The position numbers and the translations under genes were made by a program. The notes under the pieces were generated by a model. The model was not told the origin of the DNA and searched no databases. It saw only the letters and a program-made list of their open reading frames with translations. Shown here in pieces: positions 2,591 to 43,220 of a DNA stretch of 43,220 nt. This DNA is from a virus (Duplodnaviria; Heunggongvirae; Uroviricota; Caudoviricetes): the IMG/VR virus record IMGVR_UViG_2563366806_000003, one strand, 5' to 3'. Positions within the stretch are counted from its first letter, which is position 1. Each line of letters begins with the position of its first letter.

Positions 2591-3163
2591 TCATAATTCT
2601 GTGCTGGTGGCAGGAATTAATTTCTGCCAGATAGCGGAAACATATTTTGCCTGATGACGAGCATCAGCCAGGGCGTTGTGCCGTTCGCCATCGAAAGGCA
2701 TGTCCATTTTGGGGGCGAATCCGATGGAACGCCCAAGCGTAACGATCGTGCGTACATCGTGGTCATTCCAGTATGCCCACGGGCAGATTTGTCCTGCTCG
2801 CTCATAAGCTCCACGTAAAATTACGTTGTCGAAGGTGGCCCCGTTACCCCAGACTTTTAAATATTTTGTATTGTCTGCATGCTGATTAATGAAATGGCTC
2901 AGTTCAGAGAGTGCATCGCTGATCGACAAAGTATCATCAATACAGATTGCAGCTCGTGCTTCAGGGCTCTGTTTCAACCACCACAGGATGGTATCGCCGT
3001 CAGGTGTGGCCCCTTGCTCCATAGCACTTTCCAGGCTGACAACCGTATAGAATTCTTGTCCGATGTCTCCGGTTTCTGGGGTGAAGAACACCGCGCCAAT
3101 GGAAACGATTGGTGCATCCTTATTTTTCCCCATCGTCTCAAGGTCGATCATTAAGTTGTTCAT
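2591..3163 (-). CDS. DnaQ-like 3'-5' exonuclease
   Basis: MIDLETMG…GAV…, WGNG…FD and H…ALADA motifs typical of DEDDh exonucleases; AGGAGG 7 nt upstream of the ATG. Confidence 0.7.
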   Translation of the reverse strand: MNNLMIDLETMGKNKDAPIVSIGAVFFTPETGDIGQEFYTVVSLESAMEQGATPDGDTILWWLKQSPEARAAICIDDTLSISDALSELSHFINQHADNTKYLKVWGNGATFDNVILRGAYERAGQICPWAYWNDHDVRTIVTLGRSIGFAPKMDMPFDGERHNALADARHQAKYVSAIWQKLIPATSTEL

Positions 3164-3645
3164 CACTTCACCTCCTGCTGTGGTGCTGCTGCAATCATCG
3201 CGCGGTATGCAGCCTGCATGTCGTTGTCATCATCGTCTGTGTACGGAGCCGAATCCCATGCTGCACGCATATCCGGAGTAAGCTCAACCGGCACCATCAC
3301 CCAACCATCCGGAATCACCGGACAGTTGCCGCTCACAGCCTCCTGAAAGCGTCCAAGCTCCACGTACTCCTGACATGACCACCCGCCATCAATAAAATCG
3401 CGAGCTTCAACAGCGTCGAAAGTGAACGATGTTACACCTCCAGTTGGTGAGGTTAAGCCGTACAGGTCTGCTACCAGCTTAAACTGTGTGGCTGTTATGG
3501 TGCCCTCATTGGCGAGGGTACCATCCGCTTCGAGTGATGCCAGCGCGATACGCGCCAGTGCAGAAGCCTCACCACATTGAACGTGGTCAGTTTCGATAAT
3601 TTGCTGTAACTGCTCTTTGGTGAATTCTTTGGTGATAGTGCTCAT
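3163..3645 (-). CDS. Hypothetical phage early protein, 160 aa
   Basis: ORF in operon context with coupled start/stop overlaps; no recognised motif. Confidence 0.5.
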   Translation of the reverse strand: MSTITKEFTKEQLQQIIETDHVQCGEASALARIALASLEADGTLANEGTITATQFKLVADLYGLTSPTGGVTSFTFDAVEARDFIDGGWSCQEYVELGRFQEAVSGNCPVIPDGWVMVPVELTPDMRAAWDSAPYTDDDDNDMQAAYRAMIAAAPQQEVK

Positions 3646-3646
3646 A

Positions 3647-4783
3647 TCACTCCCCCTTCACGCCAATGCCAGCGGCGCGGTCAATACGTTCAATTTCTGC
3701 CAGAATAAGAGCGCCAGCTTTTACTAAGTCGCGGCGTGCTCCTGATTGCTTCCACCAGTCAGGAGACCACGGCCAATGTGCTGGAGTGGAGAAACCTTGG
3801 TTGTGCGCATGAATTGCGTAACAAGCCGCTGCATCTGCTAATTCGCTATTTTGATATGCGTTGTCATGTTCAGGAGTCCATCCTTCAACCGACTGTTGCC
3901 GCTGGCGTTCTGCTACCACATCAAGAATTGCGGGATTGAATGCGCCCCCCTCCAGTTCTGCTATGCGCTTCTCTGCGGCTTCCAACTCATCCAGCATCGC
4001 CAGCACGGTAGTGGGGTTTGCTGCGGAGTTCAGCGCGTTCAAGGCAGTGATATCTGCATCAAGCTGAGTTCCTTCTGCCAGTGAGATATCGAAAATGTCA
4101 TCAGGCGGCATAACACTAAGGCGCTCATGTTCGCCAACTGCTGCCGCTGCGATTTCACGCAGCGCCTGTTTGTCGATGTTGCTCATTGGACTGCCTCCTT
4201 TACGAAGCTGTTCGGCGATATCTTCGAGAACGCCATCAGAGAATGAGCGATCAAAATGGCTTTCCGGCGCATTAGTCATAAACTCAGTAGAGGTAAGGAT
4301 CATCCGGGCAATATCCGCGGCGTTCTTCGCAGTATCATCAATAAAACCAGCTTTCCAGGCTGCCAACATTCTGTTCGCCACAAAATAAGCGCCTTCCTTG
4401 CGTGCTTCAGTCTTCCCTTCAGCCAGAAAAGCATCGGTGGCTGGGGTTTTGATTTCGTTAAGCGCATCACTGAATCCACCACGCTCCATACCTAGCTCTG
4501 CTTCGTAATCGGCATCGAATGCAGCGTCTTTGCAGAACTTCTTCAGCTTTGCATTCTCCGCAGCCAGCGCTGAAAACTTCTCGTGTGCCAACTTAACAGC
4601 TGCATCAGCCTGCTTAATTGACTCAATCGCTTTCTGGTGGTCTTCGTACAGAGCCGAAATCTTGGCCTCCGCTTCAGCAAATTTACGCACCAGATATTCA
4701 GCGTTTGTTTCGTTCACTTTCAGATCTCGCGGTACACATTTCCCGCGAAGAAACCCTTCCATTTCGAAAACATTCATGCGCAT
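3647..4783 (-). CDS. Ead/Ea22-like early protein with coiled-coil region and DUF550-like (possible nucleotide pyrophosphohydrolase) C-terminal domain
   Basis: 378-aa ORF; C-terminal …EGWTPEHDNAYQNSELADAAACYAIHA… resembles the DUF550 family common in lambdoid early-left regions (recalled, not searched). Confidence 0.5.
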   Translation of the reverse strand: MRMNVFEMEGFLRGKCVPRDLKVNETNAEYLVRKFAEAEAKISALYEDHQKAIESIKQADAAVKLAHEKFSALAAENAKLKKFCKDAAFDADYEAELGMERGGFSDALNEIKTPATDAFLAEGKTEARKEGAYFVANRMLAAWKAGFIDDTAKNAADIARMILTSTEFMTNAPESHFDRSFSDGVLEDIAEQLRKGGSPMSNIDKQALREIAAAAVGEHERLSVMPPDDIFDISLAEGTQLDADITALNALNSAANPTTVLAMLDELEAAEKRIAELEGGAFNPAILDVVAERQRQQSVEGWTPEHDNAYQNSELADAAACYAIHAHNQGFSTPAHWPWSPDWWKQSGARRDLVKAGALILAEIERIDRAAGIGVKGE

Positions 4784-16513: not shown

Positions 16514-16990
16514 ATGCAGGCACTAAATTCCCAGCGTAAAGCTTTCCTGGATATGGTGGCATGGTCAGAAGGAACGGATAACGGGCGACAACCGACACGT
16601 AACCACGGTTATGATGTTATTGTTGGTGGCGAACTGTTCACTGATTACTCCGATCACCCTCGCAAACTTGTCACGCTAAACCCCAAACTCAAATCAACAG
16701 CCGCCGGACGTTACCAGCTTCTTTCACGCTGGTGGGATGCTTACCGTAAACAGCTTGGCCTGAAAGATTTTTCTCCAGAAAGCCAGGACGCTGTAGCTCT
16801 GCAACAGATTAAAGAGCGTGGCGCTTTACCGATGATTGACCGCGGTGATATTCGTCAGGCAATCGACCGTTGCAGCAATATCTGGGCTTCACTGCCGGGC
16901 GCTGGTTATGGCCAGTTCGAGCATAAGGCTGACAGCCTGATTGCAAAATTCAAAGAGGCTGGCGGAACGGTCAGAGAGATTGAGGTATGA
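16514..16990 (+). CDS. R: Endolysin, lambda R-type lytic transglycosylase
   Basis: Near-identical over most of its length to lambda R as recalled (…[22 protein letters not shown]…[35 protein letters not shown]…). Confidence 0.95.
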
Positions 16991-17424
16991 GCAGAGTCAC
17001 CGCGATTATCTCCGCTCTGGTTATCTGCATCATCGTCTGCCTGTCATGGGCTGTTAATCATTACCGTGATAACGCCATGACCTACAAAGAGCAGCGCGAT
17101 AAAGCCACATCCATAATCGCTGACATGCAGGAGCGTCAACGTGACGTAGCAGAACTCGACGCCAGATACACAAAGGAGCTTGCTGATGCTAACTCGACTA
17201 TCGAAAGTCTTCGTGCTGATGTTTCTGCTGGGCGTAAGCGCCTGCAAGTCGCCGCCACCTGTGCAAAGTCAACGACCGGAGCCAGCAGCATGGGCGATGG
17301 AGAAAGCCCAAGACTTACAGCAGATGCTGAACTCAATTATTACCGTCTCCGAAGTGGAATCGACAAGATAACCGCGCAGGTTAACTACCTGCAGGAATAC
17401 ATCAGGACGCAATGCCTGAAATAA
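16987..17424 (+). CDS. Rz: Rz i-spanin
   Basis: [30 protein letters not shown]… matches the lambda Rz N-terminus; ATGA overlap with R. Confidence 0.9.
17180..17371 (+). CDS. Rz1: Rz1 o-spanin lipoprotein, embedded in the +1 frame of Rz
   Basis: Lipobox LLGVSAC followed by a Pro-rich segment ([13 protein letters not shown]), wholly inside Rz in another frame. Confidence 0.85.
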
Positions 17425-17629
17425 TTTTTTTGCAAATCACAAAGTCAATTTAATGAGCCTCGCGATGCGGGGCTTTTTTTACATCTGAATTTCACAGCGC
17501 ATCTCACGCGCATATTACATCACCCGAGCCTTTCAGAAAGTTGAGCCTGAGAACTGCCGTATATGGTGGCGACCATCTCGGGGCGGCTTTTCTGTGAGAC
17601 AGGCTCACTTTCTAAAAGGTAAAGACGCT

Positions 17630-18148
17630 ATGAATCATCAATTGGCTAATCTCGATTTCCGGGACATGGTGGTTGTTTCTGGTGATCGCGTGATCACAAC
17701 CTCCCGCAAGGTAGCAGCTTACTTCGACAAGCAGCATCACCACATCATTCAGAAAATCGAAAAGCTAGACTGTTCGGATGAATTTCTAACCAGCAACTTT
17801 TCGCGGGTTACCTATGAACACAAGGGTAATCAGTATGTTGAATATGAAATTTCCAAAGACGGTGCGATGTACATCATCATGTCGTTTACCGGCAAAAAAG
17901 CTGCCGCCATCAAAGAGGCGTTTATCAAAGCATTTAATTGGATGCGTGACAGGCTGATGGAGATGGCTCACTCATACCAAAGAGAGCACAACGAGTTAAT
18001 GCTGGAGTTCATGAAGGAAAAGGATGTTGCCAGTATGTCAGGACGCTTGCTGAACCGCTGGGGCAGGATCAAAAAACCGCAACTCATAGCAAGAATAGAA
18101 AGGCTTGAGCAGCAGGCGCAAATATCGATCCCCGGACTGCCAAAGTGA
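17630..18148 (+). CDS. Rha-family phage regulatory protein (antirepressor-like)
   Basis: MNHQLANLDFRDMVVVSGDRVITTSRKVAAYFDKQHHHIIQKIEKL… is a typical Rha N-terminal domain. Confidence 0.7.
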   Translation: MNHQLANLDFRDMVVVSGDRVITTSRKVAAYFDKQHHHIIQKIEKLDCSDEFLTSNFSRVTYEHKGNQYVEYEISKDGAMYIIMSFTGKKAAAIKEAFIKAFNWMRDRLMEMAHSYQREHNELMLEFMKEKDVASMSGRLLNRWGRIKKPQLIARIERLEQQAQISIPGLPK

Positions 18149-18381
18149 CCATTCCAAAGCCCAACGGTGATGTTCTCAGAAAAATCGAGCAGGTTAAGGA
18201 TGATTGCTCGCGTGAGTTTAGCCAACGCAATTTTGCGTCGGCTTATTATATCGATGAGCAGACCAAAGAGTTCTTAGCCGAGCTGGAGAAAAACCACGAA
18301 TCTGTGGTTTTTACTGAGCGCGGCGCCCAAGCCAGTTTTTTTTGCATTACGGCAGTACTTCGAAACAACCCAAGCCAGTAA
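18145..18381 (+). CDS. Hypothetical protein, 78 aa
   Basis: ATGA-coupled to the Rha-like gene. Confidence 0.4.
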   Translation: MTIPKPNGDVLRKIEQVKDDCSREFSQRNFASAYYIDEQTKEFLAELEKNHESVVFTERGAQASFFCITAVLRNNPSQ

Positions 18382-18635
18382 GTGGGGAAATAACACTGGC
18401 AGCCACTGAAAGATGAACCTCCAGCCTTATGGCAAAAAAGATTCTTTGTGGTGGCGGACTGATGGAAAGACATCGGTTATTGCAGAGACCATTCAATGAG
18501 TGGTCTCGACAATGGCTTATACCCTACACGGGATAACTTAACTGATATCCCTTTTAACGGATAAACGGAGCCAACAATGGCAGAGAATGTCGGCATTATG
18601 GCAGTGAAATTTGGATAAATCGGAGATTAGTACAT

Positions 18636-33920: not shown

Positions 33921-34468
33921 TGAGGACGATTGAAGCCATGCAGCGACAACTCCTCGGCCTGATTGGGCGGGCCGTGGTGAAAAGCATCAGTGCCGCCACG
34001 AAATGTCAGACCGTGGATGTGTCCCTGATTGCCGGTGAACCCAAAGCCGGGGTTGAACATCTTGAACCCTACGGTTTTACCGCAAGGGCAAACAGCGGTG
34101 CGGAAGCGGTGGTGTTGTTTCCGGATGGCGACCGTTCTCATGCGGTGGTTGTTACGGTGTCGGACCGTCGCTACCGCCTGAAAGGGCTGCAAACGGGGGA
34201 GGTGGCTGTCTATGACGATCAGGGGCAGTCCGTGACGCTGACCAGGGAGGGGATCGTGGTGGACGGTGCAGGTAAAACGATCACGTTTCGCAATGCGCCC
34301 AGAGCACGCTTTGAAATGGACCTGGAAGTGACAGGACAGGTGAAAGACCTGTGCGACTCCGGCGGCACCACCATGTCAGCGATGCGGCTTGCCTATAACG
34401 GGCATCGTCACAGAGAGAACGGTCAGGGAAGTAACACCGACAAACCTGATAAAGCGATGGAGGCATGA
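33920..34468 (+). CDS. Baseplate assembly protein V (spike)
   Basis: 182 aa, position and size. Confidence 0.6.
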   Translation: MRTIEAMQRQLLGLIGRAVVKSISAATKCQTVDVSLIAGEPKAGVEHLEPYGFTARANSGAEAVVLFPDGDRSHAVVVTVSDRRYRLKGLQTGEVAVYDDQGQSVTLTREGIVVDGAGKTITFRNAPRARFEMDLEVTGQVKDLCDSGGTTMSAMRLAYNGHRHRENGQGSNTDKPDKAMEA

Positions 34469-34893
34469 TGGAACTGTGGCTGACGGTGAACGGTAAACGC
34501 ACCTGCGCCAGCGCACCGCTGGATCCGCTGCCCCGCGCCGTGGTGATTTCCCTGTTCACCTGGCGGCGGGCGGAGCCTGATGACAACGCCGACGTCCCGA
34601 TGGGATGGTGGGGGGATACCTGGCCTGCGGTACAGAATGACCGTTACGGCTCCCGACTGTGGCTGCTTCAGCGCAGCAAACTGACCAATCAGCTGGTGCA
34701 GACGGTAAGGGGGTATATCCGCGAATGCCTGCAATGGATGATTGATGACGGCGTGGTGTCCCGTATTGATCTGGATATCCGCCGCACCGGGATTAATGAG
34801 CTTGGTAACAGTATCACTCTCTGGCGTCGTGACGGACCGGTAATGATTTCTTTTGATGATCTGTGGAGTGCGATAACGCATGGCGGACAGTGA
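34465..34893 (+). CDS. Mu gp46-like baseplate protein
   Basis: 142 aa, between V-like and J-like genes. Confidence 0.55.
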   Translation: MMELWLTVNGKRTCASAPLDPLPRAVVISLFTWRRAEPDDNADVPMGWWGDTWPAVQNDRYGSRLWLLQRSKLTNQLVQTVRGYIRECLQWMIDDGVVSRIDLDIRRTGINELGNSITLWRRDGPVMISFDDLWSAITHGGQ

Positions 34894-35938
34894 ATTTCAG
34901 CGCCCGACGCTGGCAGAAAATATCAGTATGCTCCGTAACGATTTATTCGCCAGGCTGGACGTCAGCGACACGCTCCGGCGCATGGATGAAGACGTGCGGG
35001 CAAAGGTGTATGCGGCGGCGCTGCATACGGTTTACGGGTACATCGATTATCTGGCAATGAATATGCTGCCTGACCTGTGCGATGAGTCCTGGCTGGCGCG
35101 ACATGCTGCGATGAAACGGTGTCCGCGCAAGGGGGCCACGGCTGCCAGCGGGTATATGCGCTGGGAAGGTGTCAGCGATGGCCTGAAGGTGACTGCCGGG
35201 AGCGTGATTCAGCGCGATGACCTGGTTCAGTACACGGCAACTGCCGATGCAACCAGCTCCGGTGGTGTCCTGCGTGTGCCGATCACTTGCTCAACTACAG
35301 GCGCGGTCGGTAACGCTGACGACGGTACGGCATTAATCCTGGTCACGCCGGTGAATGGTCTGCCGTCTTCCGGTGTTGCAGATACCCTGACTGGCGGATT
35401 CGATACTGAAGATCTGGAAACGTGGCGCGCCCGCGTCATTGAGCGGTATTACTGGACGCCGCAGGGCGGGGCTGACGGGGACTATGTCGTCTGGGCTAAA
35501 GAAGTGCCCGGCATTACCCGCGCATGGACATACCGTCACTGGATGGGAACGGGAACTGTCGGTGTGATGATTGCCAGCAGTGACCTGATTAATCCCATTC
35601 CGGAAGAATCAACGGAAACGGCGGCAAGACAACATATCGTGCCACTGGCCCCGGTGGCAGGCTCTGATTTGTATGTGTTCAGGCCGGTGGCACATACGGT
35701 GGATTTTCATATCCGCGTGACGCCGGACACACCGGAAATACGGGCTGCCATCACCGCGGAGTTGCGTTCGTTCCTGCTGCGTGATGGTTATCCGCAGGGA
35801 GAACTGAAGGTATCGCGTATCAGTGAGGCGATTTCCGGTGCGAACGGGGAATACAGCCATCAGTTGTTTGCACCGGCAGACAATATCTCCATTGCAAAAA
35901 ATGAACTGGCGGTACTGGGGACGATTTCATGGACGTGA
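34880..35938 (+). CDS. Baseplate J-like protein (Mu gp47-like)
   Basis: 352 aa, position. Confidence 0.7.
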
Positions 35939-36513
35939 CAAACGATGATTACATCCGTCTGTTGTCGGCACTGTTGCCCCCCGGTCCGGCGTGGTCAGCC
36001 AGCGATCCGGCGATTGCCGGTGCGGCACCGTCATTAACCCGCGTTCATCAGCGTGCGGATGCCCTGATGCGGGAGCTGGATCCGCGCACCACCACCGAAC
36101 TGATAAATCGCTGGGAGCGTCTGTGCGGCCTGCCGGATGAATGTATTCCCGCAGGGACACAGACCCTTCGCCAGCGTCAGCAACGACTGGATGCGAAGGT
36201 TAACCTGGCGGGCGGCATCAATGAGGATTTTTACCTTGCACAGCTTGCTGCCCTGGGCAGACCAGACGCCACCATCACGCGATACGACAAAAGCACGTTC
36301 ACCTGCTCATCGGCCTGTACTGACGCGGTGAATGCGCCGGAATGGCGGTATTACTGGCAGGTCAACATGCCAGCCGCCACCAACACCACCTGGATGACAT
36401 GTGGCGATCCCTGTGATTCCGCACTGCGTATCTGGGGCGACACCGTTGTCGAGTGTGTGCTTAACAAACTCTGCCCGTCGCATACCTACGTAATTTTTAA
36501 ATATCCGGAGTAA
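35929..36513 (+). CDS. Mu gp48-like / YmfQ-like (DUF2313) tail protein
   Basis: 194 aa, directly upstream of the tail fibre gene, as in e14. Confidence 0.55.
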
Positions 36514-36516
36514 TCC

Positions 36517-37266
36517 ATGCATCGTATAGACACGAAAACCGCGCAGAAGGATAAGTTCGGCGCGGGTAAGAACGGTTTTACCCGTGGTAATCCCCAGACT
36601 GGTACGCCTGCCACCGATCTGGATGATGACTACTTTGACATGTTGCAGGAGGAGCTTTGCAGCGTTGTGGAGGCATCCGGTGCCAGCCTGGAGAAGGGGC
36701 GGCATGACCAGTTGCTTACCGCACTTCGCGCACTGCTGTTAAGCCGCAATAATCCGTTTGGTGATATCAAATCGGACGGCACGGTACCAACGGCTCTCGA
36801 AAACCTTGGTTTGGGAGAAGGTTCGGCATTACCCGTTGGTGTGCCTGTTCCGTGGCCTTCCGCCACTCCGCCAACAGGCTGGCTGAAATGCAACGGTGCG
36901 GCTTTTTCTGCTGAAGAATACCCGGAACTGGCAAAGGCTTACCCGACAAATAAATTGCCTGATTTACGTGGTGAGTTCATTCGTGGCTGGGATGACGGAA
37001 GAGGAATTGATACTAACCGTAGCTTGCTTTCATCACAGGGCGATGCCATTCGAAATATAATTGGTGCATTAGTGGATGTCAGGTTTAATACCTACCCTTC
37101 TGATTCTGGCGTTTTTACAACCAGCGTCATCGGAGATGCTTCATCTGATTCAATTAAAGGTGGTTATGCAAAGCGAGTAACATTCGATGCTTCCAGAGTT
37201 GTTCCAACTGCAAACGAAAACCGACCTCGTAACATTGCCTTTAATTATATCGTGAGGGCTGCCTGA
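36517..37266 (+). CDS. Tail fibre protein (constant N-terminus + variable C-terminus inside the invertible segment)
   Basis: N-terminus [44 protein letters not shown]… is typical of e14/Mu-type tail fibres; recombination site lies at codons [10 protein letters not shown]. Confidence 0.8.
36795..36821. repeat. Left recombination site of the invertible segment (gix/hix-like)
   Basis: tctcgaaaaccttggtttgggagaagg; the 15-mer ttggtttgggagaag recurs inverted at 38604-38618. Confidence 0.7.
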
Positions 37267-37868
37267 TGAATAAAGCCGTATTAAATAACGAACTCATTGC
37301 CATAAAAGCGGGAGACATTACCATTTATAATTATGATGGTGAAACGCGGGAATATATTTCCACATCAACTGAATATCTTGCGGTTGGCGTCGGTATACCG
37401 GCATGTTCTTGTTTAGATGCACCAGTTACACATAAAGCTGGTTATGCAATCTGCCGTTCTGCAGATTTTAACTCATGGGAATATGTGCCAGACCATCGCG
37501 GTGAAATCATCTATAGCACCGAAACAGGAGAATCAAAAGAAATCACAGCTCCGGGTGATTACCCTGAAAATACAACCACTATCGCCCCGTTAACGCCATT
37601 CGATAAATGGGATGGTGAGAAATGGGTGACCGATACTGAGGCACAGCATCGCGCCGCAGTAGACGCGGCAGAAGCACAGCGTCAGTCACTGATTGATACT
37701 GCAATGGCTTCCATTAGTCTGATTCAACTGAAATTACAGGCCGGGCGGAAACTGACGCAGGCAGAAACAACCCGGCTTAACGCTGTGCTGGATTACATTG
37801 ACGCGGTGACGGCAACAGATACCAGCACCGCGCCGGATGTCATCTGGCCTGAACTGCCGGAGGAGTAG
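37266..37868 (+). CDS. Tail fibre assembly protein (expressed orientation)
   Basis: ATGA-coupled to the tail fibre gene; C-terminal conserved Tfa motif also present in the inverted paralog. Confidence 0.75.
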   Translation: MNKAVLNNELIAIKAGDITIYNYDGETREYISTSTEYLAVGVGIPACSCLDAPVTHKAGYAICRSADFNSWEYVPDHRGEIIYSTETGESKEITAPGDYPENTTTIAPLTPFDKWDGEKWVTDTEAQHRAAVDAAEAQRQSLIDTAMASISLIQLKLQAGRKLTQAETTRLNAVLDYIDAVTATDTSTAPDVIWPELPEE

Positions 37869-38280
37869 GCCATTCAATATCTGGTGCACTGGAAGTATCG
37901 ACCAGCTCCAGTGCGTCCAGATAATCCAGCCACAAATTATATTGCGCCAGTTCCTCACCTTTCAGACGACCAATAGCCGCTTTACCAACCCATTGTCTAC
38001 TGTTCATATAATCGTTGGCCTGATTAATCAATTGCTGCTTTTTAGTTTCGGCTGATGCAATTTGTTCTTCACGTGTTGGCGGTGGAACATCTGCCCATGC
38101 TGGCATTCCATCGTCTCCGGTAATTCTGTACTTACCGTCAGGCGGCGTATCATGGAAATATTCCCTGAAAATAGCTTCGTCTATATCCACGCCTTTACCT
38201 TCGGGCCATTGGCCTTTTGCAGCGTAAACAGACTGGAGGGCATAAGGGTACGCCAGATTATCAACATACAAATATTTCAT
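37840..38280 (-). CDS. Alternative tail fibre assembly protein (silent orientation)
   Basis: Convergent with the first Tfa; similar C-terminal end (…DTSSAPDIEWPTPP… vs …DTSTAPDVIWPELP…). Confidence 0.7.
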   Translation of the reverse strand: MKYLYVDNLAYPYALQSVYAAKGQWPEGKGVDIDEAIFREYFHDTPPDGKYRITGDDGMPAWADVPPPTREEQIASAETKKQQLINQANDYMNSRQWVGKAAIGRLKGEELAQYNLWLDYLDALELVDTSSAPDIEWPTPPAVQAR

Positions 38281-38282
38281 AA

Positions 38283-38615
38283 TTAACGCCCTTTCGCGTA
38301 GAAGGCTCCACCTTCAAAGCCATAGTTACAATGAGCAACGAAACCTGTTTTCGTCCAGTTAGTTGCGCCCCACATATTCCCACCACCAAAACCGCCGTCA
38401 TATACAATCACTACGTCTGGCTCCTGCGTAAAAGGAATGGTGAAAGTCACATTTGTAGATACCGCCGCGGCGTTATTCGGGAAATTAATTCTTCCCCACT
38501 GTTCAATTGAACCATCAGGCAATTTTTGCCAGCCAGATCCTGATGAATAAGCTGACATATCAGGTATCTGATTTTCCCCTGTTCCCACATTCCGTTTTGC
38601 CGCTTCTCCCAAACC
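38283..38615 (-). CDS. Alternative tail fibre variable C-terminal segment (promoterless until inversion)
   Basis: Begins at the right recombination site with the same N-x-G-L-G-E junction codons as the tail fibre gene. Confidence 0.7.
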   Translation of the reverse strand, partial: GLGEAAKRNVGTGENQIPDMSAYSSGSGWQKLPDGSIEQWGRINFPNNAAAVSTNVTFTIPFTQEPDVVIVYDGGFGGGNMWGATNWTKTGFVAHCNYGFEGGAFYAKGR

Positions 38616-38628
38616 AACGTTTATGAAA
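38602..38628. repeat. Right recombination site of the invertible segment (inverted copy)
   Basis: Reverse complement tttcataaacgttggtttgggagaagc matches the left site. Confidence 0.7.
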
Positions 38629-38683
38629 ATGCAGAAATAGCGCGCAAATGGCATCGTTCCTGTTTTTGTCAGGAGGAGCTATC

Positions 38684-39240
38684 ATGCTTATTGGCTATGT
38701 TCGCGTATCAACAAATGACCAGAACACCGATCTACAACGTAATGCGTTGAACTGTGCAGGATGTGAGCTGATTTTTGAAGACAAGATAAGCGGTACAAAG
38801 TCCGACAGACCAGGACTGAAAAAGCTGCTCAGGACATTATCGGCAGGTGACACGCTGGTGGTCTGGAAACTGGACCGACTGGGGCGCAGTATGCGGCATC
38901 TTGTCGTGCTGGTGGAAGAGTTGCGCGAACGTGGCGTTAATTTTCGCAGCCTGACGGATGCTATTGATACCAGCACACCAATGGGGCGCTTTTTCTTTCA
39001 TGTGATGGGTGCCCTGGCTGAAATGGAGCGAGAGTTTATTGTCGAACGTACTAGGGCGGCTTTGCCGCAGCACGACAAGAAGGGAGGAACGGTGGGCGAA
39101 AGCCAAAGCTGACAGTAGAACAATGGGGGCAGGCTGGCAGGTTGATTGAATCGGGAATATATCAGCAGCAAGTCGCACTGATTTATGATCTGGGTATTTC
39201 AACGGTGTATAAAAAATTCCCTGTAGCAAGTAAACCATAG
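38684..39240 (+). pseudogene. Gin/Pin/Hin-family serine DNA invertase, disrupted by a single-base frameshift
   Basis: MLIGYVRVSTNDQNTDLQ… catalytic domain runs to 39112; the HTH domain (GRKPKLTVEQWGQAGRLIE…VALIYDLGISTVYKKFP) continues in another frame to 39240; join point at agggcggctttgcc (about 39052-39062) consistent with loss of one G. Confidence 0.75.
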
Positions 39241-39266
39241 CCTTACGCCACATTGATGATCGCGGA

Positions 39267-39962
39267 TTATGCACTATTTTTAGGTCTTGTAACCCGAGGT
39301 GGGAGTTGTTTGGTTATATGTTCAAGTGATTTTTTGCCCAAGATAGTTCTTTGGACAAAACTTTCTATAGCTTCTAGCATTTGTTCGAACTCACTTTTAT
39401 TCGGGCTCCAACTGCGATGTGCGGCGGCGTTTCCTGCATCAATTACTGAAGATATAACGCATGCCTCAGTGTCGCCTATGACTCCATCTTGTTTTAATTT
39501 TTCAACTTTTTCACCAAGCGGCAAACCGGGGTGAATTTGTAACAGTTCAGCAGTTCGATCAAAAATCGTCCGTAAACCGATGGACGAAAGAATGAAATGG
39601 TCAGAAGTATATGAAGAATACATTTCATTAAATATTTGAAAGAGCTGACGATCAACTGATTCAAGCTTGGATAACCATATCGGAGCTTGAAATGTTTCAG
39701 CGGCAGGATAGGTAGTGATCATATCTATAGGCGTTTCTACAAATTCACCATCACGATATTCGTGGGTAGTATGCTCACTGAAGTGTTCGTTGTGGTGATA
39801 GAAGACAGTATCACAGCCATTGCATTGGAGTAGGTGATGGTAATGGTACCCATAAACTGGATATTGGGAATCCTCCCAGCTAGTGGTTAGCTTCCCATGC
39901 ACAGTGCAGTTACGTAACCCACCGCATGTAGGGCAAAGAGCCTTGAGTATTTCCTTTTTCAT
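39267..39962 (-). CDS. Hypothetical Zn-ribbon protein (231 aa), candidate defence/exclusion cargo; function not recognised
   Basis: AT-rich ORF antisense to the tail operon; N-terminal CPTCGG…C and CNGC cysteine pairs; the rest matches nothing I recognise. Confidence 0.55.
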   Translation of the reverse strand: MKKEILKALCPTCGGLRNCTVHGKLTTSWEDSQYPVYGYHYHHLLQCNGCDTVFYHHNEHFSEHTTHEYRDGEFVETPIDMITTYPAAETFQAPIWLSKLESVDRQLFQIFNEMYSSYTSDHFILSSIGLRTIFDRTAELLQIHPGLPLGEKVEKLKQDGVIGDTEACVISSVIDAGNAAAHRSWSPNKSEFEQMLEAIESFVQRTILGKKSLEHITKQLPPRVTRPKNSA

Positions 39963-40029
39963 AAAGTCTCTGATTCTATATGTAGGTTAAGACCACTATT
40001 AGCTATACGGACCTAATAATCAATCGTGT

Positions 40030-40056
40030 GCAGATACAAAAAAGCCCGTATAGCGG
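40030..40056 (-). terminator. Intrinsic terminator between the dinI-like gene and the 231-aa gene
   Basis: cccgctatacggg hairpin followed by a T-run on the minus strand. Confidence 0.45.
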
Positions 40057-40310
40057 GATTTCATGTCACTAAGGGCCGCGGCTACTTTGCGTATCTTTTT
40101 TGTCTTCTCACCGTCTGGCCGGTATTTTGCTGAGACTGCTTATTTCCAGTTTTTACTAGTGCTGTACTGGTACTGCCCAATCATGATTGGTGGGGGACGG
40201 AGTTGAGACCGCAGCCACGTCGTATGCAAGAACGCGCTGCGGTTGGCTGGTGAACTTTCGATAGTGCGAGTATTGAATGATTTCCAGCCGTTACAGATTT
40301 TACGTGTTTA

Positions 40311-40559
40311 TTAGTGAACAAACCACTCGTCAGCAGATTCCCAGGTATCTTTCAGAGTCTCCTGAACAAAAGTTTTTGCAGAATCCTTATCTGCGGTGCG
40401 TGTAACAGAAAGGCCATCATTGCTGGTGGCTTTTACTAACACCTCAACATCGTCATAACGCTTACTGATGCGTCGGGTTAATTCTTCCTTTAACGCATCC
40501 ACAGCACCGGTTGGCATTTTAGTCATTTTTTCTTTGGCTATGCAGATTTCAATACGCAT
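40311..40559 (-). CDS. dinI: DinI-family protein
   Basis: MRIEICIAK…, and C-terminal …[15 protein letters not shown]… match host DinI; two LexA boxes immediately upstream. Confidence 0.85.
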
Positions 40560-40572
40560 AAAAGTCCCTCCA

Positions 40573-40620
40573 TACTGTGTTTGTATACAGCATTATTTTT
40601 AACTGTATGGATAAACAGTG
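40573..40620. promoter_or_regulatory. Two tandem LexA (SOS) boxes upstream of the dinI-like gene
   Basis: tACTGTgtttgtatACAGca (40573-40592) and aaCTGTatggataaACAGtg (40601-40620), both CTGT-N8-ACAG. Confidence 0.7.
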
Positions 40621-41718
40621 TCAAGAGGTCTTATTTCTGCTCCTTTGGAGCTCTTCAAAACGATTATGTAAAGATTTCGGATACAGTTCGGTATATACCT
40701 GCCATAGCACGTTTAATGAACGATGCCCTGTAACTTGGGCGACTTCCTCAATACTAAAACCAGCCTCAAATAAGCGACTTGCCCCTTCTCTACGCAAATC
40801 ATGGTATCGCAGATCCTTAATACCTAATTTGCTTCTTACTCTCTGAAATCCCGCAGTAACAGAAGTGCTGTTATATGGAAAAATGAATTCCGATTTTTGG
40901 GGCTGTCGTTGGACGATATCCCAGGCTTCCCCAAGCAAGGCTACTTTCATGTGGTTGCCTTCCTTTTTGCGTGGATCTTTCCTGTCTCTTACGAGTATAG
41001 ATTTTTGTTCCTGGTCGAGATCTTCCCATCGTAACCGGCATACTTCTCCGATTCGCATACAGGACCATACAGAAAATTTGAGGATATCAACGAACGGAAT
41101 TTTTGAGCATTTATGAGTAGATCGTTGTTGAAGGCCTGCAATGAGCATGTCCAGTTCATCAGATGCTGGTCTACGATTACGACGGTTTGATTTACCAATC
41201 AAACCAAGTTTAAGTAGATATGGGCGAGCGCTTTTCGCCGGGTTTGATGTGTAATTAATTCCGTATACAGGTTTGGCCGCATCCAGAACACTGCCAAGAT
41301 AACTAACATCGTGGCTGACTGTTGCAGGACCTGCACCAGCGTTGTTTCTTAGCCTGCAATGTTCAATTACGTCATTTTCTGTCAGTTCAGATAGTTTGAT
41401 CGCGGAGATGTCACTATCCATAAGCAGTTCCAGCACATATCTTTTAGTACGGCCTGCTTTACCTCCGGCATTTGGGTCATTTAAATATTTGTGTAGTAAG
41501 TCACGGACTGTAAGTCCGTCAACTGCATTTGATGATGGAATACCATATAGATCTAATTCCATCACTTTCTGTGTGCCCCATGTTTTGGCATGAGCATGTT
41601 TAGGGAATGTTTTGCTTTCCCTGTAAGTGATAACACCTTTTTCTTTGATAATCACATTACAGCGATAGCGTGGTGTGCCATCGGATTTTAGTCGTTTCTC
41701 TATGTTATAGTACGCCAT
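40621..41718 (-). CDS. int: Tyrosine integrase (dusA-specific type)
   Basis: 365 aa with C-terminal catalytic region (…HDLRREGASRLFEAG…VTGHRSLNVLWQVY…); adjacent and divergent to dusA. Confidence 0.9.
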   Translation of the reverse strand: MAYYNIEKRLKSDGTPRYRCNVIIKEKGVITYRESKTFPKHAHAKTWGTQKVMELDLYGIPSSNAVDGLTVRDLLHKYLNDPNAGGKAGRTKRYVLELLMDSDISAIKLSELTENDVIEHCRLRNNAGAGPATVSHDVSYLGSVLDAAKPVYGINYTSNPAKSARPYLLKLGLIGKSNRRNRRPASDELDMLIAGLQQRSTHKCSKIPFVDILKFSVWSCMRIGEVCRLRWEDLDQEQKSILVRDRKDPRKKEGNHMKVALLGEAWDIVQRQPQKSEFIFPYNSTSVTAGFQRVRSKLGIKDLRYHDLRREGASRLFEAGFSIEEVAQVTGHRSLNVLWQVYTELYPKSLHNRFEELQRSRNKTS

Positions 41719-41806
41719 TACACGACCTCGTTATTTCGGGTTCCCATAAAACGTGGGAACCTGTGCGGGAACCTAACGCGAGAAAAATAGCCTGAAATGT
41801 TCAAAA

Positions 41807-42844
41807 ATGCACGATAATCATGAAACACAAAAAATTAATCAAACCAGCGTGATGCCTGAAAAAACTGGTGTTTACTGGAATTCTCGGTTTAGCATTGCTC
41901 CTATGCTCGACTGGACGGACAGACATTGCCGCTATTTCTTGCGTCTGCTTTCCCGCAATACGTTGCTGTATACTGAAATGGTAACTACAGGGGCGATTAT
42001 TCACGGTAAAGGTGATTACCTGGCGTATAGTGAAGAAGAACATCCGGTAGCGTTGCAACTCGGCGGTAGCGATCCGGCGGCGCTGGCGCAGTGTGCGAAG
42101 CTGGCAGAAGCGCGTGGATATGATGAGATCAACCTGAATGTCGGCTGCCCGTCTGACCGGGTGCAGAACGGCATGTTTGGTGCGTGTCTGATGGGTAATG
42201 CGCAGCTGGTTGCCGACTGCGTGAAAGCGATGCGCGATGTGGTGTCGATTCCGGTGACGGTGAAAACGCGTATTGGCATCGACGACCAGGACAGCTATGA
42301 ATTTCTCTGCGATTTCATCAACACCGTTTCCGGCAAAGGCGAGTGTGAGATGTTCATCATCCATGCACGTAAAGCCTGGCTTTCGGGGTTAAGTCCGAAA
42401 GAAAACCGTGAGATCCCGCCGCTCGATTATCCGCGTGTGTATCAACTGAAGCGTGACTTTCCGCATCTGACAATGTCGATTAACGGTGGTATCAAGTCGC
42501 TGGAAGAGGCCAAAGCACACCTGCAACATATGGATGGCGTGATGGTCGGGCGCGAGGCGTATCAGAATCCGGGTATTCTGGCGGCGGTAGACCGGGAGAT
42601 CTTTGGTTCCTCGGATATCGATGCCGATCCGGTGGCGGTAGTGCGCGCCATGTATCCGTACATTGAGCGTGAACTCAGCCAGGGGACGTATCTCGGTCAT
42701 ATTACCCGGCATATGTTGGGCTTGTTCCAGGGTATTCCTGGCGCGCGGCAGTGGCGGCGTTATTTAAGTGAAAACGCCCATAAAGCGGGTGCAGACATTA
42801 ATGTGCTGGAACACGCGCTCAAACTGGTGGCGGATAAGCGTTAA
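41807..42844 (+). CDS. dusA: tRNA-dihydrouridine(20/20a) synthase DusA; first ~32 codons supplied by the prophage
   Basis: 345 aa Dus-family protein; N-terminus [35 protein letters not shown] differs from the displaced native N-terminus at 1071-1175. Confidence 0.9.
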
Positions 42845-42977
42845 CTTTTCACCAAAAAATAGTCAAATTCACCACGCCCTGCGCACCGTCGCGGGGCGTT
42901 TTGCTGTTAAATCAATAGATTATTTTTGGCATGATTCTTGTAATGCCAGCAAGAGATTTCATATTTGGGAGTGCATC

Positions 42978-43220
42978 ATGCTGGAACTACTTTTTGTGAT
43001 TGGCTTTTTTGTCATGCTGATGGTCACCGGCGTTTCGTTGCTGGGCATTATCGCCGCGCTGGTTGTGGCGACGGCCATTATGTTCCTCGGCGGTATGCTG
43101 GCATTGATGATTAAGTTGCTGCCGTGGTTACTACTGGCGATTGCGGTGGTGTGGGTTATTAAGGCGATTAAAGCACCAAAAGTGCCGAAATATCAGCGTT
43201 ATGACCGCTGGCGTTACTAA
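42978..43220 (+). CDS. pspG: Phage shock protein G
   Basis: 80-aa hydrophobic protein MLELLFVIGFFVMLMVTGVS… directly downstream of dusA as in E. coli; GGGAG RBS; the track ORF's upstream extension is not credible. Confidence 0.8.
   Translation: MLELLFVIGFFVMLMVTGVSLLGIIAALVVATAIMFLGGMLALMIKLLPWLLLAIAVVWVIKAIKAPKVPKYQRYDRWRY

Follow-up and report, generated by a model that had tools for sequence, protein, structure and literature searches.

A probable e14-type invertible tail-fibre segment with a frameshifted invertase gene in an SfII-like prophage at dusA

Switch systems of the kind considered here are already known and have been well described, as in the P segment of e14 in Escherichia coli K-12, a relative of the G segment of phage Mu. 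For the Gin/Cin/Pin/Hin class as a whole, a mechanism based on an invertase and a Fis-bound enhancer is established. Inversion of the e14 P segment has been detected by whole-genome sequencing and PCR (PMC4272514). Two invertases, PinE and PinQ, are able to invert it, acting at the same repeat, TTGGTTTGGGAGAAGG; PinQ, which is only 38% identical to PinE, acts in trans (PMC12529663). One product of the e14 locus, StfE2, blocks adsorption of phage T2 (PMC12529663).

The DNA analysed here (the window, 43,220 bp) contains a region that is very probably an e14-type P segment, a switch of the Gin/Cin/Pin/Hin class carried by a complete SfII/SfV/e14-like prophage at dusA, its cis-encoded invertase having been inactivated. 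The first-pass annotation had described a G-segment-like switch comparable to those of Mu (G), P1 (C) and e14 (P). The class assignment holds, but the closest system is the e14 P segment, with which the sites are identical, and not Mu G. The features are as follows.

36517–36805, + strand: constant 5′ part of the tail-fibre gene (Sc), outside the invertible segment; start of a 249-aa ORF (36517–37266)
36794–36819: left 26-bp crossover site, CTCTCGAAAACC TT GGTTTGGGAGAA, with the central TT at 36806–36807; the same as the left e14 site of MG1655
36806–37266, + strand: variable tip at present fused to Sc (Sv, tail-collar type, StfE-like); Pfam Collar PF07484, E = 1.8e-15
37266–37868, + strand: tail-fibre assembly chaperone paired with Sv (U, TfaE-like); Pfam Caudo_TAP, E = 1e-32
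37840–38280, − strand: alternative tail-fibre assembly chaperone (U′, TfaP-like); Pfam Caudo_TAP, E = 4e-32
38283–38617, − strand: alternative variable tip (Sv′, gp53-like C-terminal domain), now unjoined to Sc; Pfam Gp53-like_C PF21882, E = 1.6e-8
38283–38654, − strand: 123-aa ATG-initiated ORF across the right site, its first 17 codons outside the segment
38604–38629: right 26-bp crossover site, TTCTCCCAAACC AA CGTTTATGAAAA, with the central AA at 38616–38617; the same as the right e14 site
38684–39240, + strand: Pin/Gin-family serine DNA invertase pseudogene; Pfam Resolvase, E = 6.9e-49
38705–38768: candidate Fis-dependent recombinational enhancer within the 5′-terminal part of the invertase gene; two G-N13-C 15-mers

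Crossover sites, fibre genes and related segments

The sequence TTGGTTTGGGAGAAG occurs exactly twice in the window, at 36806–36820 (+) and 38603–38617 (−). The exact 15-bp inverted repeat reported earlier is thus real, while its right copy, placed at 38604–38618, was one nucleotide off. With up to two mismatches allowed, 0.09 matches would be expected by chance, and two matches were obtained in 0 of 100 shuffled sequences. A repeat search extended the arms to 20 nt with 95% complementarity (36801–36820 and 38603–38622), which makes them the longest inverted repeat within 35–41 kb. A generic 26-bp invertase-site pattern (TTNTCNNAAACCNNGGTTTNNGANAA) matched the window at two places only, with one mismatch each (0.01 expected). 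These matches, at 36794–36819 and 38604–38629, bear out the suggestion that the repeat is embedded in longer gix/hix-like sites. The same pattern falls on the annotated boundaries of the Mu G segment and on the e14 sites, and both sites of the window are base-for-base identical to those of the P segment in E. coli K-12 (MG1655). Their central dinucleotides, TT and AA, match in inverted orientation, which is a requirement for inversion. No third 26-bp site was detected anywhere in the window at up to three mismatches. Multiple-inversion systems (Min of p15B, the R64 shufflon) need more than two crossover sites and were rejected as models for this two-site locus.

The left site was predicted to lie inside the tail-fibre gene, at the boundary of its constant and variable parts, and this is where relatives lose collinearity: they follow Sc to 36820, after which the alignment breaks. 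The N-terminal part of Sc is nearly identical to K-12 StfP (YcfK), and the whole fibre in its present state (249 aa) shares 74% identity with an in-silico K-12 StfP2. The U chaperone is 91% identical to K-12 TfaE. It is met by the convergent U′ gene, which overlaps it by 29 bp and the C-terminal half of whose product is 73% identical to K-12 TfaP. As also foreseen, the right site begins the opposed gp53-like tip and chaperone gene and stands 67 bp upstream of a Pin/Gin-type invertase gene. The gene order is ymfQ/gp48-like, fibre, chaperone, opposed chaperone, opposed tip and invertase, as in e14 and Mu. When the segment is inverted in silico, Sv′ joins the reading frame of Sc, and the resulting fibre of 207 aa has 98.6% identity with the one annotated in strain LR-46. 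Both fibres, the present one of 249 aa and the flipped one of 207 aa, precede a Caudo_TAP gene, in agreement with the earlier proposal that inversion exchanges the fibre C-terminus together with its chaperone. NCBIfam searches with the fibre and chaperone proteins yielded no specific model. No exact copy of the combination of cassettes seen here was found among complete E. coli genomes and phage records, where the best interior matches were 88% (full-length) and 93–96% (mosaic).

Besides the two identical sites, the region shares with the e14 P segment the order ymfQ-stf-tfa-tfa-stf-pin (in e14 stfP/ycfK, tfaP, tfaE, stfE and pinE), a 29-bp overlap between the convergent chaperone genes, an Sc part of about 96% DNA identity, the TfaE-like chaperone (91%) and the invertase (85%). 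Measured from centre to centre, the segment is 1,812 bp long here and 1,829 bp in e14. They differ in that e14 is a remnant of 15 kb at icd whose pinE works and which has mcrA next to it, whereas the dusA prophage that contains the present segment is complete and measures about 40.7 kb. Here the invertase gene is frameshifted, and a DUF4145 gene takes the place of mcrA. The segment is oriented opposite to the MG1655 reference, and its gp53-like tip is another allele, the StfE2-equivalent ORFs being about 36% identical.

The Mu G segment (S/U, S′/U′, gin and gix) has the same architecture and position after the gp45–gp48 baseplate genes, a 26-bp site type found by the same pattern, an invertase (Gin) to which the one here is 74% identical, and the same distance of 67 bp between the centre of the right site and the start codon of the invertase. 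It differs in its size (about 3 kb), much longer fibres, intact gin gene and other site sequences; its chaperones are 27–32% identical to those here and its fibre tips are unrelated. Invertible tail-fibre segments of P2-like E. coli prophages, such as the one of O25b:H4 (CP015085/CP015088), have interior cassettes about 96% identical to those here and identical inner half-sites, but a long P2 H-like constant fibre part, other outer half-sites, and an intact invertase that is 84% identical.

The segment is carried by a complete myovirus prophage (about 40.7 kb) that resembles SfII, SfV and e14; it is not e14 itself but a full-length relative. It possesses repressor, lysis, head and tail genes, and to the right of the segment DUF4145, dinI-like and int genes. 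A PADLOC search with the DUF4145 protein gave no match. The head/tail/baseplate module matches that of the serotype-converting Shigella phages SfII, SfI, SfIV and SfV, with 97.5% identity across 97% of 16.9 kb. SfII differs in having a single short fibre and one chaperone, with neither an invertase nor a second cassette, so that the invertible module is an optional addition in this phage group.

The invertase gene, its frameshift and the proposed switch

The first-pass annotation had hinted that the invertase gene might not be intact, and alignment with the intact L001 gene bears this out, revealing a single 1-nt gap. One G is missing from the run at 39058–39059 (intact GGGCGGGC, here GGGCGGC). 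The ORF consequently ends after 142 aa (stop at 39112) and leaves the helix-turn-helix DNA-binding domain out of frame. When the frame is repaired, the protein can be aligned over its whole length with PinE (84.8% identity) and Gin (74.2%) and matches the Gin structures 3UJ3 and 4M6F over residues 1–181 (E ~1e-90). An NCBIfam search returned recombinase matches below threshold only. The repaired protein has the catalytic Ser9 motif, YVRVSTNDQ. The residues specific to invertases that depend on Fis and an enhancer are, in Hin, K47, K/R48 and K/R51 together with Q151, R154 and L155 (PMC3798978); in the alignment, K46, K47 and R50 (each one less than its Hin number) can be seen, as can the motif QAGRL, which falls in the stretch now out of frame. 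The neighbouring invertase gene being inactivated by the 1-nt deletion, the switch cannot be driven in cis. No second invertase gene was detected in the window.

A candidate Fis enhancer is located in the 5′ end of the invertase gene, with the 15-mers GTATCAACAAATGAC (38705–38719) and GTGCAGGATGTGAGC (38754–38768), whose distances to the crossover point are 97 and 146 bp. Matching 15-mers occur at both of these offsets in Mu gin, and for e14 pinE one is listed at the first offset only. The TAATG element noted for the hin enhancer (PMC3798978) is kept between the two. This stretch is also coding, so its conservation alone is no proof of an enhancer. A scan of 36.3–39.4 kb for promoters and terminators gave nothing above background, including upstream of the invertase gene and of the 123-aa ORF.

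The identical deletion occurs in eight other independent complete assemblies, and the allele is annotated as 'frameshifted' in relatives. It lies on a haplotype block common to the carriers, with several linked SNPs, which points to inheritance of the deletion rather than error; the alleles of TL20 and LWY6 have a recombinant upstream background. Compared with intact relatives, the frameshift allele also has the non-synonymous changes L118F and E149G. Recurrent mutation at a hotspot was rejected, given one haplotype block among the eight other assemblies. Programmed frameshifting was set aside on inspection of the sequence, as there is no slippery heptamer or long homopolymer at AGGGCGGCTTTG.

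By analogy with the class, a Pin-family serine invertase would bind the two 26-bp sites and, in concert with a Fis-bound enhancer inside the 5′ part of the gene that encodes it, would exchange strands at the central TT/AA, flipping the 1,812-bp segment. In the present orientation, Sc (36517–36805) is fused to the collar-type tip and followed by the TfaE-like chaperone; in the other, Sc would carry the gp53-like tip and be followed by the TfaP-like chaperone. Exchange of the tips, which are known by their Pfam domains only, may change the receptor specificity of the virion. With the adjacent gene broken, the switch is either locked or dependent for its flipping on a related invertase from another locus of the host genome.

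Orientation among relatives and the present state of the switch

The same dusA prophage occurs in strains G5, LR-46 and HH107, where the flanks are 97–99.9% identical to those of the window and the interior aligns to the opposite strand; the change of strand falls at 36801–36820 and 38603–38622. HH107 and GF66.2 share one cassette pair but have it in opposite orientations, with interiors 97.3% identical. Within a single assembly, that of E. coli O25b:H4, both orientations are recorded for a segment about 96% identical to the present one; the flanks are 100% and 99.87% identical, the interiors 99.9%, and the outer half-sites are swapped. Across complete E. coli genomes, the junction of Sc with the collar tip was found in 515 and that of the collar tip with the invertase in 1006. 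Carriers of the frameshift likewise fall into two groups: the window, TL20 and LWY6 share one orientation, and G5, HH107 and four others have the opposite one. The frameshift allele was found with at least eight different cassette pairs.

Whether the segment of this strain still inverts is finely balanced. A frozen relic, locked with the collar-type fibre and carrying the opposed tip and chaperone as unexpressed baggage, comes a little short of an even chance. The 1-nt deletion removes the DNA-binding domain of the invertase, the allele has acquired L118F and E149G, the window supplies no second enzyme, and a search among frameshift carriers for near-identical interiors in opposite orientations returned no pair; the sole opposite-orientation pair above 97% combines one frameshifted and one intact allele. 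Orientation differences among the carriers could also reflect homologous replacement of the whole segment rather than site-specific inversion, because their cassettes differ and the invertase region is mosaic. Against a relic, the crossover sites are perfectly conserved, and a frameshift allele of single origin occurs with both orientations. Related segments are present at a median of two places per matching genome, so that trans-acting invertases are often on hand, and PinQ, at only 38% identity to PinE, inverts the e14 segment in trans (PMC12529663).

These observations also allow a more tentative history, in which the allele was broken once and the orphaned switch is still flipped, and perhaps restocked with cassettes, by the invertases of other resident prophages, as PinQ does for e14. 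Its basis is that the identical deletion sits on a common haplotype block yet accompanies both orientations and at least eight cassette pairs. It is possible but doubtful, as is its further suggestion that the StfE2-like ORF might protect the lysogen.

That ORF is the basis of another explanation, according to which inversion has been selected for a free-standing gp53-like protein of 123 aa that blocks other phages, and not for the host range of the phage itself. The orientation in the window creates the ORF, which by position is the equivalent of e14 StfE2. Its N-terminus, MPFARYFCIFINVGLGE, compares with MPFACYFFIFINVGLGE in K-12, the 17 residues being almost identical to those of StfE2; it carries the gp53-like domain, and StfE2 is reported to stop T2 adsorption (PMC12529663). 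However, overall identity to an in-silico K-12 StfE2 is only 36%, the gp53-like part being likewise 36% identical, no promoter-like site was found upstream of the ORF, and PADLOC returned no match for it. The prophage, unlike e14, looks complete and SfII-like, which leaves a role in virion host range fully available. A defensive function as the selected one is considered unlikely.

Far less probable is a sequencing or assembly error that conceals an invertase functional in cis. The deletion does lie within a short G-rich repeat, GGGCGGGC, and the frame beyond it is open to the normal stop codon, but its recurrence in eight independent complete assemblies, annotated as frameshifted and sharing one haplotype block with linked SNPs, argues strongly for a true mutation. 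Finally, the idea that the inverted repeat arose by chance, or from a short motif common to two diverged tail-fibre paralogues (both arms encode the peptide LGLGE, in two fibre genes), and does not serve as a recombination site, is effectively refuted by a chance expectation of just 0.01–0.09, by sites equal to the experimentally inverted e14 sites (PMC12529663) and by orientation breakpoints of relatives exactly within the repeats.

The reading of the region as an e14-type P segment matters little beyond correct annotation, which should name it an invertible tail-fibre (P) segment of the e14 type whose pin gene has become a pseudogene. Differences between assemblies in the orientation of the segment may be legitimate, and the fibre expressed by this inducible-looking prophage would depend on that orientation. 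The survey of the frameshift allele amounts to a modest natural test of the reliance of such switches on trans-acting enzymes. In E. coli the loss of the cis invertase need not leave a switch locked, as several Pin-type invertases that cross-react are often present together.

Crossover sites and gene layout

The 15-bp inverted repeat proposed in the first-pass annotation is real and exact, the 15-mer TTGGTTTGGGAGAAG being present as two copies in the window, at 36806–36820 (+) and 38603–38617 (−), the latter 1 nt from the coordinate first assigned. Chance expectation in the window is about 0.09 matches, even allowing two mismatches. The longest inverted repeat returned by a repeat search of the 35–41 kb region has 20-nt arms (36801–36820 and 38603–38622) that are 95% complementary. 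A generic 26-bp invertase-site pattern, validated as a detector of such sites because it also matches the annotated phage Mu G-segment boundaries and the e14 sites, found only two matches in 43 kb (one mismatch each, 0.01 expected). The central dinucleotides of these sites, TT (left) and AA (right), are equivalent when inverted. The sites and genes of the segment are as follows.

36517–37266 (+), tail fibre, 249 aa, with a tail-collar domain in its C-terminal part (Pfam Collar)
36794–36819, left 26-bp site, CTCTCGAAAACC TT GGTTTGGGAGAA (generic invertase-site pattern)
37266–37868 (+), tail-fibre assembly protein (Pfam Caudo_TAP)
37840–38280 (−), second tail-fibre assembly protein (Pfam Caudo_TAP)
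38283–38654 (−), ORF with a gp53-like C-terminal domain (Pfam Gp53-like_C)
38604–38629, right 26-bp site, TTCTCCCAAACC AA CGTTTATGAAAA (generic invertase-site pattern)
from 38684 (+), serine recombinase gene (Pfam Resolvase, E = 6.9e-49)

Baseplate genes of the Mu gp47/gp48 type (Baseplate_J, Phage_Mu_Gp48/YmfQ) lie 5' of the fibre gene, and the gene order is that of phage Mu (gp45-48, S, U, U', S', gin) and of e14 (ymfQ, stfP, tfaP, tfaE, stfE, pinE). Inversion of 36806–38617 in silico joins the constant part of the fibre in frame to the gp53-like tip, giving a 207-aa fibre with the second chaperone gene directly 3' of it.

Both orientations among related prophages

The two 26-bp sites match those of e14 in E. 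coli K-12 MG1655 at every base. The e14 P segment inverts at TTGGTTTGGGAGAAGG by the action of PinE, and also of PinQ in trans (PMC12529663), and phase-varies in culture (PMC4272514). The MG1655 segment has the reverse orientation of the one in the window. At dusA, the same prophage is found in strains G5, LR-46 and HH107. Its flanks are collinear with those of the window (97–99.9% identical); the interior aligns to the other strand, and the alignments switch at 36801–36820 and 38603–38622. Over all 207 residues, the fibre predicted for the flipped state shares 98.6% identity with the annotated LR-46 fibre, and the same cassette pair (97.3% identical) is flipped in HH107 and unflipped in GF66.2. 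An E. coli O25b:H4 assembly holds two copies, in a chromosomal P2-like prophage and in an extrachromosomal record, with interiors that are 99.9% identical to each other (~96% to that of the window) but oppositely oriented; between the two copies the outer half-sites have changed places, and the flanks agree at 100% and 99.87% identity. In a set of 5,426 complete genomes of E. coli, the junction of constant part and collar tip (present state) occurs in 515 and the collar–invertase junction (flipped state) in 1006, consistent with PMC12529663, which reports an inverted fraction of 33%. The sites, the gene order, the in-frame fusion and the flipped relatives all support the first-pass reading of an invertible tail-fibre switch, with a predicted effect on host range.

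The O25b:H4 copies are at NZ_CP015085.1 4681598–4689427 (L006, chromosomal) and NZ_CP015088.1 17410–25239 (L007, extrachromosomal). The latter is part of a linear 'extrachromosomal' record (29.5 kb) for the same phage. Several genes in this record are frameshifted, and heterogeneous orientation or induced phage DNA may have produced it as a by-product of assembly.

A shared invertase frameshift

In alignment, the invertase gene of the window lacks one G at about 39058 (GGGCGGC versus GGGCGGGC in L001, the closest relative, whose gene is intact), so that the reading frame is cut to 142 codons and the helix-turn-helix domain is no longer in frame. The frame-repaired protein shares 84.8% identity with PinE and 74.2% with Gin, is matched by Gin crystal structures at E ~1e-90, and keeps the catalytic Ser motif and the residues specific to Fis/enhancer-dependent invertases described in PMC3798978. 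Conserved 15-mers only (38705–38719 and 38754–38768), inside the 5' end of the gene, point to a candidate Fis enhancer at 38705–38768; counterparts of these 15-mers occur at both offsets in Mu gin, and were listed for e14 pinE at the first only.

An identical 1-nt deletion, annotated there as 'frameshifted', is found in 8 of 14 fetched relatives that carry a DUF4145 gene after the invertase.

39040–39130, frameshift allele in the window; also in loci L002, L004 and L017–L022

The deletion sits on a shared SNP haplotype block, and the upstream (5') half of the gene is mosaic, with TL20 and LWY6 resembling the intact L001 allele there. This combination indicates a single origin of the allele and its spread by recombination within the gene, rather than a sequencing error or mutational hotspot.

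No second invertase gene was found in the window and the cis invertase is dead, and therefore any flipping here would depend on invertases elsewhere in the genome. Frameshift carriers occur in the window's orientation (the window, TL20 and LWY6) and in the opposite one (G5, HH107 and four others). This pattern could also have come about by homologous replacement of entire segments, since the cassettes differ among these carriers and the region is recombinogenic: the interior (36821–38602) shows 88–94% identity to relatives, with parts unalignable, versus 99.5–99.9% for the flanks (34000–36820 and 38603–43220). Segment length varies from 1,802 to 1,902 bp among relatives, with many different gp53-like tips, and the cassettes appear to be exchanged much faster than the remainder of the prophage. 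Among the relatives, no two frameshift carriers that share identical cassettes were found to differ in orientation.

The present orientation is the one that creates an ATG-initiated 123-aa ORF (38654–38283, −) across the right site, the positional equivalent of e14 StfE2, which is reported to block T2 adsorption (PMC12529663). For a prophage of fully functional appearance, a similar defence role ranks as a possible, secondary reading. Against it, the gp53-like part shares only 36% identity with K-12 StfE2, no promoter-like site lies 5' of the ORF, and PADLOC returned no match for it.

Prophage context and relation to known systems

The dusA–pspG DNA flanking the prophage is 99.9% identical to E. 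coli. The whole prophage (~40.7 kb) lies in the window, bounded by a 16-bp direct repeat, ATGCCTGAAAAAACTG (1116–1131 and 41852–41867), that falls inside the 5' end of dusA, the known arrangement of dusA-specific integrases.

40621–41718 (−), tyrosine integrase gene, adjoining dusA
41807–42844 (+), dusA

In HH107 a leftover dusA 5' fragment is annotated at the opposite prophage end. Gene content includes a CI-like repressor, an Rz lysis gene and a DinI-like gene; the last (40311–40559, −; Pfam DinI, E = 1e-19) is flanked by the DUF4145 and integrase genes and is kept in all dusA relatives examined. The HH107 prophage is 98.9–99.8% identical to that of the window across most of its length. Three stretches absent from it (1236–2303, 3179–4679 and 16963–18634) resemble ordinary exchanges of accessory modules. 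Among their genes are an Ead/Ea22-like gene (3647–4783), a Rha-family regulator (17594–18148) and the Rz gene (16987–17424); a neighbouring Rv2179c-like 3'-5' exonuclease gene (2591–3166) is common to HH107. The slot right of the invertase (39267–39962, −) encodes a 231-aa DUF4145 protein, for which PADLOC gave no match, and its cargo varies among relatives (mcrA in e14 and phage vB_EcoM-689R6, a LEM-3-like GIY-YIG gene in strain STEC719). The slot has the look of a small hotspot for defence genes or morons.

By sequence, the region belongs to, and would work like, the Gin/Cin/Pin/Hin inversion systems; a multiple-inversion system is rejected, as the window has only two 26-bp sites. The region is orthologous to the e14 P segment: the sites are identical, the genes follow the same order, and shared parts show 85–96% identity. 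Unlike e14, the segment sits in a complete prophage at dusA, with a pseudogenised invertase, a DUF4145 gene in place of mcrA, and other tip alleles. The structural module is 97.5% identical to those of the viable Shigella phages SfII, SfI, SfIV and SfV, and e14 belongs to this SfII/SfV-like group in truncated form. SfII has one fibre and one chaperone without an invertase, which makes the invertible module an optional one among these phages. The system is a known one and is widespread in E. coli, where over 3,000 of 5,426 complete genomes have related segments; the only mildly new point is a widespread frameshifted invertase allele, of single origin, that coexists with both orientations.
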